This document shows positions 53,913-54,995 of a DNA stretch of 64,000 nt, piece by piece. The notes beneath the pieces are model-generated. The model was given only the letters and a program-made list of their open reading frames with translations, did not search any database and was not told the DNA's origin. Origin of the DNA: Escherichia coli (GTDB lineage Bacteria; Pseudomonadota; Gammaproteobacteria; Enterobacterales; Enterobacteriaceae); the NCBI RefSeq assembly GCF_051903065.1, contig NZ_CP178438.1; one strand, written 5' to 3'. The position numbers and the translations under genes were made by a program. Each line of letters begins with the position of its first letter. Position 1 is the stretch's first letter.

Positions 53913-54416
53913 ATGGTAGATATTGTCGAGGCCGATAAAACGGATATTTATTTCATTCAGGAGAGTGTTTATGGTAAAATCGGGCTGCCAGCTTTTGGTA
54001 ATACAATAGGACCATCTGCACAGCAGGTTGTTAAAAAGGTATTCGCTGTCGTTAAAGAACGAGATAAGACACATGCAAAACAGAGATTATTGTTGGAATA
54101 TAATGGTAACAAACTCTGGATGAATGCTATTGATGGCAGTGAAGCTATCCTACCAATAGAATTTTCTAAGCGATACGAACTTTCATTATTCAATACTACT
54201 AATTTTGGAGAAGATCCTTTTCCTGATGTTAATTTATATAATAATATGAAATCAAGTTTTTTTGTAAGGTTTGGTGGAACATCCCATCCCGAGGCTTGGG
54301 CTATTTATAATGCAAGTACGAAAGAGGTTAAATATATAGAAACTGCAAGAGAAATTGATAAAATATTCAGTGATTTTAACTTGAGTGGTACATTGCCAAT
54401 TCACATTGGTCAATGA
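53913..54416 (+). CDS. Hypothetical protein (167 aa), no recognisable motif
   Basis: ORF with RBS GGAGGG 5 nt upstream; AT-rich; between two H-repeat remnants. Confidence 0.5.
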   Translation: MVDIVEADKTDIYFIQESVYGKIGLPAFGNTIGPSAQQVVKKVFAVVKERDKTHAKQRLLLEYNGNKLWMNAIDGSEAILPIEFSKRYELSLFNTTNFGEDPFPDVNLYNNMKSSFFVRFGGTSHPEAWAIYNASTKEVKYIETAREIDKIFSDFNLSGTLPIHIGQ

Positions 54417-54482
54417 TTTTTTAAATTGTGTGATTAAATAATTGAACATTAGTGATGATTTATAGCATCATTATTCTATAAC

Positions 54483-54995
54483 ATGAATAAACGGATTGAA
54501 TGTGTTATGTTAAAAATGAGTTTATACGTAATAATATTGTTATTTTCCTTTCAGATTAGTGCAGCCATTACTAGCAAGGAAAGTGAGGTTGTTTCACCAT
54601 TATTAATGGATGTTAATTCTTCACTAACAATGCAAAATATTTCTGAATTATCCACATCATCGGAACCATCGCAACAGGGGGTATTTCCTGTAATATGTAC
54701 TCGACTTCATCCTGGCTCCGTAATGAAACGCCAGTTATTAACCGGCTGGGGGCCTGTTTTTATAATTGGTGATGATCCTTTTTCTCTGCGCTGGATGAGT
54801 GAACATCTGGAGATCCTTAAATCGCTAAATGCCCTTGGTTTGGTTGTTAATGTTGAATCAGTAGAACGAATGGAGGTATTACAGCAGCGGGCTGATGGGT
54901 TATTGTTATTGCCAGTTATCTGCGATAATTTCGTGCAAACTCTGCAATTAAATGCTTATCCGGTATTAATCACAGAGATGGAAATATCACAATGA
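54483..54995 (+). CDS. Hypothetical secreted protein (170 aa) with signal peptide
   Basis: N-terminal LKMSLYVIILLFSFQISAAIT signal-like segment; AT-rich. Confidence 0.5.
   Translation: MNKRIECVMLKMSLYVIILLFSFQISAAITSKESEVVSPLLMDVNSSLTMQNISELSTSSEPSQQGVFPVICTRLHPGSVMKRQLLTGWGPVFIIGDDPFSLRWMSEHLEILKSLNALGLVVNVESVERMEVLQQRADGLLLLPVICDNFVQTLQLNAYPVLITEMEISQ

Follow-up and report, generated by a model that had tools for sequence, protein, structure and literature searches.

Two adjacent, co-oriented genes, named here ORF1 (positions 53913–54416, plus strand, 167 aa) and ORF2 (54507–54995, plus strand, 162 aa), were analyzed in a 64,000-nucleotide stretch of the Escherichia coli chromosome (assembly GCF_051903065.1, contig NZ_CP178438.1; hereafter, the window), where they occupy the right-hand, distal end of the aspV T6SS-1 (type VI secretion system) island, next to yafV-ivy-fadE. 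The genomic evidence suggests, with a probability that we put at about 0.5, that they may constitute a working T6SS effector-immunity pair, and it seems quite probable that the family to which ORF1 belongs is T6SS cargo. The two genes have been inherited together, and the pair is old and constrained, and members of the ORF1 family became linked to T6SS genes on several independent occasions.

We infer that ORF1 may be a short-form, Hcp-size effector, still active in this form and small enough for the Hcp tube, which would be secreted by the T6SS into the periplasm of a neighboring cell and would be toxic there by damaging a target in the envelope. The long forms of the family would be effectors accompanied by an immunity protein with four transmembrane helices (4-TM), a partner that is absent in the Escherichia lineage. 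In the short form, the immunity role may have passed to ORF2, a putative Sec-exported protein of the thioredoxin fold, which would bind and neutralize incoming ORF1 in sibling cells. The ORF2 gene would have been captured once from the conjugation module of an ICEclc-type integrative and conjugative element (ICE), where its product probably serves as a periplasmic, chaperone-like accessory.

Conservation and allelic diversity of the pair

Both open reading frames were present in the six-frame list, as had been claimed in an earlier note made from the window's sequence, in which ORF2 was given as the maximal frame of 170 aa (54483–54995). This start was corrected, since the RefSeq annotation begins at 54507 (MLKMSLY) and since in a second E. 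coli allele (L005, see below) the upstream extension is replaced by ATG-AAT-TAA, i.e., by a stop codon; translation from 54507 is thus the most likely. Two further remarks of that note held: ORF1 has a strong ribosome binding site (the Shine-Dalgarno-like GGAGGG at 53903–53908, plus strand, read from the sequence, 4 nt before the ATG) and both genes are AT-rich, with a G+C content of 0.31–0.38 over positions 53750–54999 vs approximately 0.5–0.57 in the flanking core genes.

The 1.4-kb ORF1-ORF2 segment was found with at least 80% coverage in 541 of 5426 complete E. coli genomes, and at any listed coverage in 768 of them. It always lies beside the yafF-like ISAs1 fragment and yafV, whatever the upstream cargo, which is Tle1 in strains of the window type, a PAAR-like module in strain 536, and a DUF4123 module in ST131. 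Full-length clusters comprised 762 and 899 member sequences, and truncated versions also exist. CFT073-like genomes carry the tos type I secretion operon instead of the T6SS; ORF1 and the 5' part of ORF2 are missing there, removed by an IS630 remnant. In such an O6:K2:H1 genome (L003, 9334–9534) the last 66 ORF2 codons were left behind the IS630 remnant and are annotated in RefSeq as PFL_4695-family; we estimate from the match counts that about 200 genomes show this CFT073-like pattern of 46% coverage.

Three divergent allelic versions of the pair were distinguished, in which the two genes are always adjacent, at the same island end, and separated by 27–90 nt. The second version, at the same locus of E. 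coli OU349849 (L005), shares 68% (ORF1) and 75% (ORF2) amino acid identity with the window; the synonymous divergence (dS) is 0.58 and 0.41, respectively, vs 0.09 for yafV, and the ratio of nonsynonymous to synonymous divergence (dN/dS) is 0.31 and 0.34. The third version (L018/L019) comes from an enterobacterium of another genus, whose tssBC and yafV are approximately 77% identical to those of E. coli at the nucleotide level. Its locus is free of insertion sequences (ISs) and carries hcp, vgrG, a DUF4123 gene, two unannotated genes (likely themselves an effector-immunity pair), a PAAR gene, a 5' vgrG fragment, ORF1' and ORF2', with yafV further on. ORF1', which has the same short form, is 59% and ORF2' 48% identical to the window proteins, with dN/dS of 0.20 and 0.30 at dS of 1.3–1.4; for tssB of the same comparison dN/dS was 0.10 at dS 1.6, i.e., at a dS similar to that of the pair.

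As the segment recurs in E. coli genomes and the frames remain open at dS of 0.4–1.4 with dN/dS of 0.2–0.34, ORF1 and ORF2 are more than chance reading frames, and purifying selection acts on both. Moreover, a deletion of about 28 residues, by which the short form of ORF1 differs from its longer relatives, is common to all three alleles, and it is therefore old and has been kept under constraint.

In L005, the region directly upstream of the pair (6931–9576) encodes a 327-aa protein without assignment, a 411-aa protein, and a 137-aa thioredoxin-like protein (PF00085, E 1e-6), the last being a second thioredoxin-fold gene beside the pair. The 411-aa protein gave a sub-threshold match to TIGR02270, which we take to be a T6SS-associated family.

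ORF1 family and the origin of ORF2

ORF1 is a cytoplasmic-type protein without a signal peptide, a short-form member of an unnamed family. It had no match in Pfam, NCBIfam, PADLOC, or PHROGs, and none among PDB sequences; the statement of the earlier note that neither protein holds an assignable motif was wrong for ORF2, whose family (DUF2859/TIGR03765) is clear. PDB sequence and profile searches with both families returned nothing. A word-indexed search with ORF1 retrieved only the E. coli copies and one 68% allele, whilst an exhaustive phmmer search of 1.84 billion representatives yielded 29 proteins at E ≤ 0.001, mostly of 180–200 aa and 29–40% identical, the closest being P0009 (40%). In an 18-sequence alignment, residues E17, G99, D101, P102, L108, and Y109 (ORF1 numbering) were invariant, giving the family motif G-x-D-P-x-P...LY (G99 to Y109, 54207–54239, plus strand) plus the invariant Glu E17 (codon 53961–53963, plus strand), and all of them are retained in every short form. 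Glu17, Asp101, and Tyr109 are the only invariant polar residues, and no Cys-His or other recognizable catalytic set was seen. The Escherichia-type short forms lack about 28 long-form residues after residue 50 (near 54062). The single-sequence AlphaFold model of ORF1 reached a mean confidence (pLDDT) of 36 and was not used; for this reason P0009, the closest long form, was modeled instead from a 35-sequence alignment (pLDDT 87). This predicted structure is mostly beta and includes a helix at the C-terminus as well as long beta hairpins. What the short form lacks corresponds to a loop-helix-loop between two core strands, and the fold search with the model gave no informative match. Scans of genomes and metagenomes, for which a narrower family alignment was used, found only seven and four loci, respectively, and therefore the family is rare; a search of plasmids gave only copies of the E. 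coli chromosomal type.

Three relationships of ORF1 were considered and rejected. Its E-S motif and its place upstream of a DUF2859 gene brought up the idea of a divergent VirB1/soluble lytic transglycosylase (SLT)-like enzyme, but the hhalign probability against the SLT-like protein of an ICE was 0.4% and the model is mostly beta. A divergent Hcp, suggested by the hcp position that the gene occupies after tssC in one contig (L030), was dismissed as there is no PF05638 match and no Hcp beta-barrel fold. Finally, homology with DUF2859 had been suggested by a 20-nt direct repeat coding for GxDPF (54205–54224 vs 54766–54785, 85% identical), which lies in the best-conserved motif of each protein (FGEDPFP in ORF1, IGDDPFS in ORF2). 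Profile-profile comparison gave no homology (probability 0.4%), and the repeat was therefore treated as a coincidence.

The genomic neighborhoods of the family were then compared (Escherichia island included), and approximately 4 of 11 independent contexts proved to be T6SS-adjacent. The earlier note had proposed to look for such linkage among homologs, and for ORF1 the inspection bore this out. P0009 is encoded 16 nt downstream of an orphan hcp (L006), with a gene for a multi-pass membrane protein converging on it. P0018, from a JGI soil metagenome contig (L030), directly follows tssC, in the place that hcp usually takes, within a cluster of the order tssL-tssM-tagF-tssA-tssB-tssC ... tagJ-tssE-tssF-tssG; the 16.6 kb analyzed from this contig contained no hcp. 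In a further locus (L034), the order is ORF1-like gene, 4-TM gene, hcp, and tssJ-like gene. These three non-Escherichia contexts lie immediately beside hcp or tssC, two of them within core clusters, and in both Escherichia and the second enterobacterial genus (L018) the short form is found at the T6SS island end. If 1–2% of random genes were T6SS-adjacent (our rough, uncomputed estimate), such a frequency would be very unlikely to arise by chance.

The long forms of the family occur in a cassette composed of the ORF1-like gene, a gene for a four-helix membrane protein of 142–158 aa, whose start overlaps the former gene or lies within 30 nt of it in every cassette, and often a gene for a DUF805 membrane protein. 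Such cassettes were found in Yersinia pseudotuberculosis, Erwinia billingiae, Pantoea, Rouxiella, Morganella, Burkholderia, and several metagenomic contigs. A soluble gene followed by a tightly coupled membrane partner is the usual effector-then-envelope-immunity layout. The cassettes usually close with the DUF805 inner-membrane protein, of 110–134 aa (L008, L011, L014, L015, L027, and others). In the soil contig, the P0018 gene heads a run (8001–13062) that continues with about nine small genes. Their products include a 4-TM protein, three small exported proteins, a 126-aa protein with weak CHAP similarity, and a 275-aa protein whose C-terminus holds a glycine zipper; the whole resembles an effector-immunity array placed within the cluster.

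ORF2, by contrast with ORF1, has a clear family assignment. It belongs to DUF2859 (PF11072, E 1.9e-28, 99.6 bits with a cut-off of 25; Pfam envelope 54654–54983, plus strand, residues 58–167 of the 170-aa frame) and to TIGR03765, the "PFL_4695 family integrating conjugative element protein" (E 2e-35, 120.7 bits with a cut-off of 59.75, model positions 1–105 of 105); PADLOC and PHROGs gave nothing for it. The signal-like hydrophobic N-terminus mentioned in the earlier note is indeed visible on reading the sequence, where it closes with ISA|A, and inspection predicts a Sec signal peptide (MLKMSLYVIILLFSFQISA|A) at 54507–54563 (plus strand); the same N-terminal architecture is present in ICE homologs. 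In ICEs the gene belongs to a mating-pair-formation type G (MPF-G) module: in that of Citrobacter freundii (L017), a 46%-identical homolog lies between the SLT-like gene and the TraG/type IV coupling protein (T4CP) gene and is followed by the MPF-G genes RAQPRD, DUF3262, DUF2976, DUF3487, DUF2895, and DUF3438. ORF2 is a member of the sequence family outside this context of a VirB1-like transglycosylase and a coupling protein, and no other ICE or type IV secretion system (T4SS) gene was seen near the pair in the window region, L005, or L018.

Overall identity of ORF2 to enterobacterial ICE copies is 46–48%. In a neighbor-joining tree of the DUF2859 domain (constructed without bootstrap), the copies from T6SS islands group in a single clade, whose sister group is the enterobacterial ICE copies. 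Every T6SS-island copy has two cysteines, Cys72 and Cys147 (170-aa numbering; 54696–54698 and 54921–54923, plus strand, from the alignment), at which ICE copies have Ser, Gly, or other residues. As the T6SS-island copies are one clade with two cysteines of its own, a single capture from an ICE probably preceded the split of these lineages. The two cysteines might pair as a structural disulfide in the periplasm, and our reading of the alignment is that the position of the thioredoxin CxxC appears to be taken by the invariant GDDPxS. The one relative with experimental localization is Orf71178 of ICEclc. It is predicted to carry an SPI-type signal peptide, and its AlphaFold model is similar to thiol-disulfide oxidoreductases; a functional mCherry fusion of it was located in the cell envelope, deletion of the gene lowered ICEclc transfer 10-fold, and the authors suggested a chaperone-like role (Daveri et al., PMC10018362). 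As Orf71178 is envelope-located and described as chaperone-like, it is plausibly a binder of periplasmic proteins (PMC10018362). With the ICE proteins ORF2 shares the length, a predicted signal peptide, and the invariant motifs IGDD...GLVVNV...YPVLIT. It differs from them in lying in a T6SS island instead of the VirB1-like/DUF2859/T4CP arrangement of ICEclc and the Citrobacter ICE, and its clade has, besides the two new cysteines, lost the LPGM motif, and it lacks the ADLGG segment after the signal peptide.

Weighing of the effector-immunity reading

Small Hcp-dependent T6SS effectors with envelope immunity proteins are well known, e.g., Tse1-4/Tsi1-4 of Pseudomonas aeruginosa, the Tae/Tai pairs, and Ssp/Rap of Serratia. 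The ORF1 family is like them in its size (approximately 19–22 kDa) and lack of a signal peptide, in the co-oriented gene for an envelope-type protein that directly follows (the predicted exported ORF2, or 4-TM in the long forms), in its genomic settings (after hcp, within T6SS clusters, or as orphan pairs at other places in the genome), and in the strong divergence of its alleles. Substrates are said to be held in the Hcp lumen (work attributed to Silverman and colleagues, 2013), and the 167–198 aa of the family would fit there. The candidate effector ORF1 resembles no described effector in sequence or fold and has no recognizable catalytic set, and its family changes partner type between subfamilies. 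A comparison may also be made with the Tli1a-Tle1 module (50032–52663), a cargo module with antibacterial function in this T6SS-1 island, which likewise includes an exported immunity protein (the counterpart candidate being ORF2). However, the protein families are unrelated, the immunity gene comes first in Tli1a-Tle1, and an ISAs1 element separates the module from the pair; furthermore, the Tle1 module is swapped for others in 536 and ST131, whereas ORF1-ORF2 is constant across strains.

Several observations weigh against this reading. No toxin domain or T6SS marker (PAAR, Rhs, MIX, FIX, DUF4123-dependent, etc.) was detected in ORF1 by the Pfam, NCBIfam, PHROG, PADLOC, PDB, and fold searches, and the short form could be inactive owing to the loss of about 28 residues. 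Homologous effectors usually keep homologous immunity proteins, and here the partner is not homologous between the subfamilies (4-TM vs DUF2859). About two thirds of the long-form cassettes stand between housekeeping genes with no T6SS gene within 8 kb, and in L005 there is no T6SS core gene within 10 kb upstream of the pair. To our knowledge, DUF2859 has so far been tied to conjugation only; the tree that gives the single T6SS-island clade has no bootstrap support; and the functional role of ORF1-ORF2 is itself a hypothesis built on genomic evidence. The suggestion of the earlier note that these could be orphan effector or immunity genes is partly supported: it finds backing in the relatives of ORF1 beside T6SS genes and in the pair at the L018 island end, but most long forms have housekeeping neighborhoods. 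A narrower version, in which ORF1 would be an envelope-targeting toxin of a new fold acting through Glu17 and Asp101 and the ancestral 4-TM immunity protein would have been replaced in Escherichia by an exapted ICE chaperone of DUF2859, seems to us distinctly improbable.

Among the other explanations, one is that ORF2 would serve the T6SS-1 machine itself as a chaperone or accessory in the periplasm, aiding the folding or assembly of envelope components as its ICE relatives aid the T4SS, while ORF1 would be cargo without dedicated immunity or with a non-antibacterial role. The properties of Orf71178, i.e., its envelope location, thioredoxin-like structure, chaperone-like character, and the 10-fold drop in ICE transfer on its loss (PMC10018362), speak for it, and so do the retention of ORF2 at the T6SS island in two genera and its truncation in the CFT073-like genomes, where the tos operon stands in place of the T6SS-1 cluster. 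We nevertheless regard it as unlikely: ORF2 is placed after variable cargo and not in the core cluster, it is always immediately 3' of ORF1 in three divergent alleles, the L005 strain has the pair with no T6SS core gene in the 10 kb upstream, and most complete E. coli genomes do not have it (768 of 5426 matched; T6SS-1 carriage among the rest was not counted). It may also be supposed that the proteins of the ORF1 family act together with their membrane partner in the envelope, independently of any T6SS (as a module for, e.g., stress, exclusion, or phage defense), the E. coli pair being a neutral hitch-hiker and adjacency to T6SS genes reflecting nothing but shared residence in variable islands. 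Most long-form cassettes are in fact small insertions among housekeeping genes (Yersinia, Erwinia, Pantoea, Rouxiella, Morganella), and the DUF805 partner matches a PHROG of phage moron membrane proteins (E 2e-9). This is rather improbable given the three non-Escherichia contexts beside hcp or tssC, which by a back-of-envelope estimate far exceed the expectation for a random island gene, and the lack of any PADLOC match; in addition, orphan pairs away from T6SS clusters are normal for Hcp-dependent effectors.

The idea that both genes are decaying relics without present function, namely an ICE leftover (ORF2) and an unrelated orphan stranded between ISs or carried as ISAs1 passengers, we consider highly doubtful. 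ORF2 does belong to an ICE family, same-orientation ISAs1 copies flank the pair in the window, the region is AT-rich, truncated versions are known, and the short form of ORF1 has an internal deletion. Yet both frames are intact at a dS of about 1.3 with dN/dS of 0.2–0.3, full-length copies make up the two large clusters described above, the deletion common to three alleles is old and constrained, no further ICE gene lies near any of the three allelic loci, and the same pair is present at the IS-free L018 locus. Carriage of the pair as passengers of an ISAs1 composite transposon was rejected, as L018 has the pair without any IS and L005 has a single ISAs1, downstream only.

If the effector-immunity reading is correct, a hitherto undescribed effector family without a fold neighbor would be added to the T6SS arsenal of extraintestinal pathogenic E. 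coli (ExPEC)-type strains (536, ST131, and relatives), and to that of several further Enterobacterales and of soil bacteria. Such a pair would moreover be an example of immunity conferred by a protein that a conjugation apparatus had supplied, and the widespread and functionally vague DUF2859 family would gain a second context. T6SS effector-immunity pairs are well known as a kind; new would be the effector family and the ICE origin of its partner. We found no reports of the ORF1 family, of DUF2859/PFL_4695/TIGR03765, or of DUF805 genes in a T6SS context in the searchable literature. Should the exaptation of a chaperone to immunity be true, this would be the first T4SS accessory protein turned T6SS immunity protein, with the hint that ICE DUF2859 proteins may bind or restrain an envelope-active enzyme, e.g., the neighboring VirB1-like transglycosylase.

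Flanking elements and the architecture of the island end

Upstream of the pair, the island carries tssB, hcp, a frameshifted vgrG, an M35 peptidase gene, a vgrG fragment, tla1, tli1a (50032–50586), tle1 (50603–52663), and a degraded ISAs1; the IS content of this side varies among strains. The transposase remnants that the earlier note reported on both sides of the pair were identified as members of one family. The upstream ISAs1-family element (52802–53748, plus strand), recognized by NF033564, DDE_Tnp_1, and the RefSeq annotation of an identical strain, has a frameshift and an internal stop; a 118-aa piece of its transposase matched NF033564 with E 2e-26, and the element is approximately 90% identical to the intact ISAs1 of L005. 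It sits between the tle1 cargo module and the pair. On the other side, between ORF2 and yafV, lies a yafF-like ISAs1 fragment (55015–55230, plus strand; direct repeats and RefSeq annotation), in which an internal piece is joined to the right end, and L005 has a full ISAs1 at the same position. As the IS-free L018 locus has the same pair, its placement between these remnants is incidental. The core-genome boundary of the island is yafV, encoding 2-oxoglutaramate amidase (55269–56045, minus strand; ORF list and RefSeq).

A stable imperfect palindrome (53839–53887, plus strand), found by inverted repeat search and RNA folding, lies about 15 nt upstream of the Shine-Dalgarno sequence of ORF1. The hairpin has 21-nt arms (dG −31.8 kcal/mol, z −3.6) with no clear U-tract, and it could be an operator, a terminator, an RNA element, or the end of the neighboring IS.

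The 3' end of yafV recurs as a 64-bp copy just downstream of tle1, left of the upstream ISAs1 (52713–52776 vs 55261–55324; 77% identical, same orientation), so placed that the direct repeat brackets the 2.5-kb segment composed of ISAs1, ORF1, ORF2, and the ISAs1 fragment. The Tle1-type strain has the left copy, which 536, ST131, and E. whittamii lack; this copy resembles a scar that a cargo-module swap from a genome in which tle1 abutted yafV would have left. Strain 23CRST027 (L001), otherwise 100% identical to the window, carries an IS1A (13416–14112) between ORF2 and the ISAs1 fragment that is absent from the window, and this junction is therefore an active IS target.

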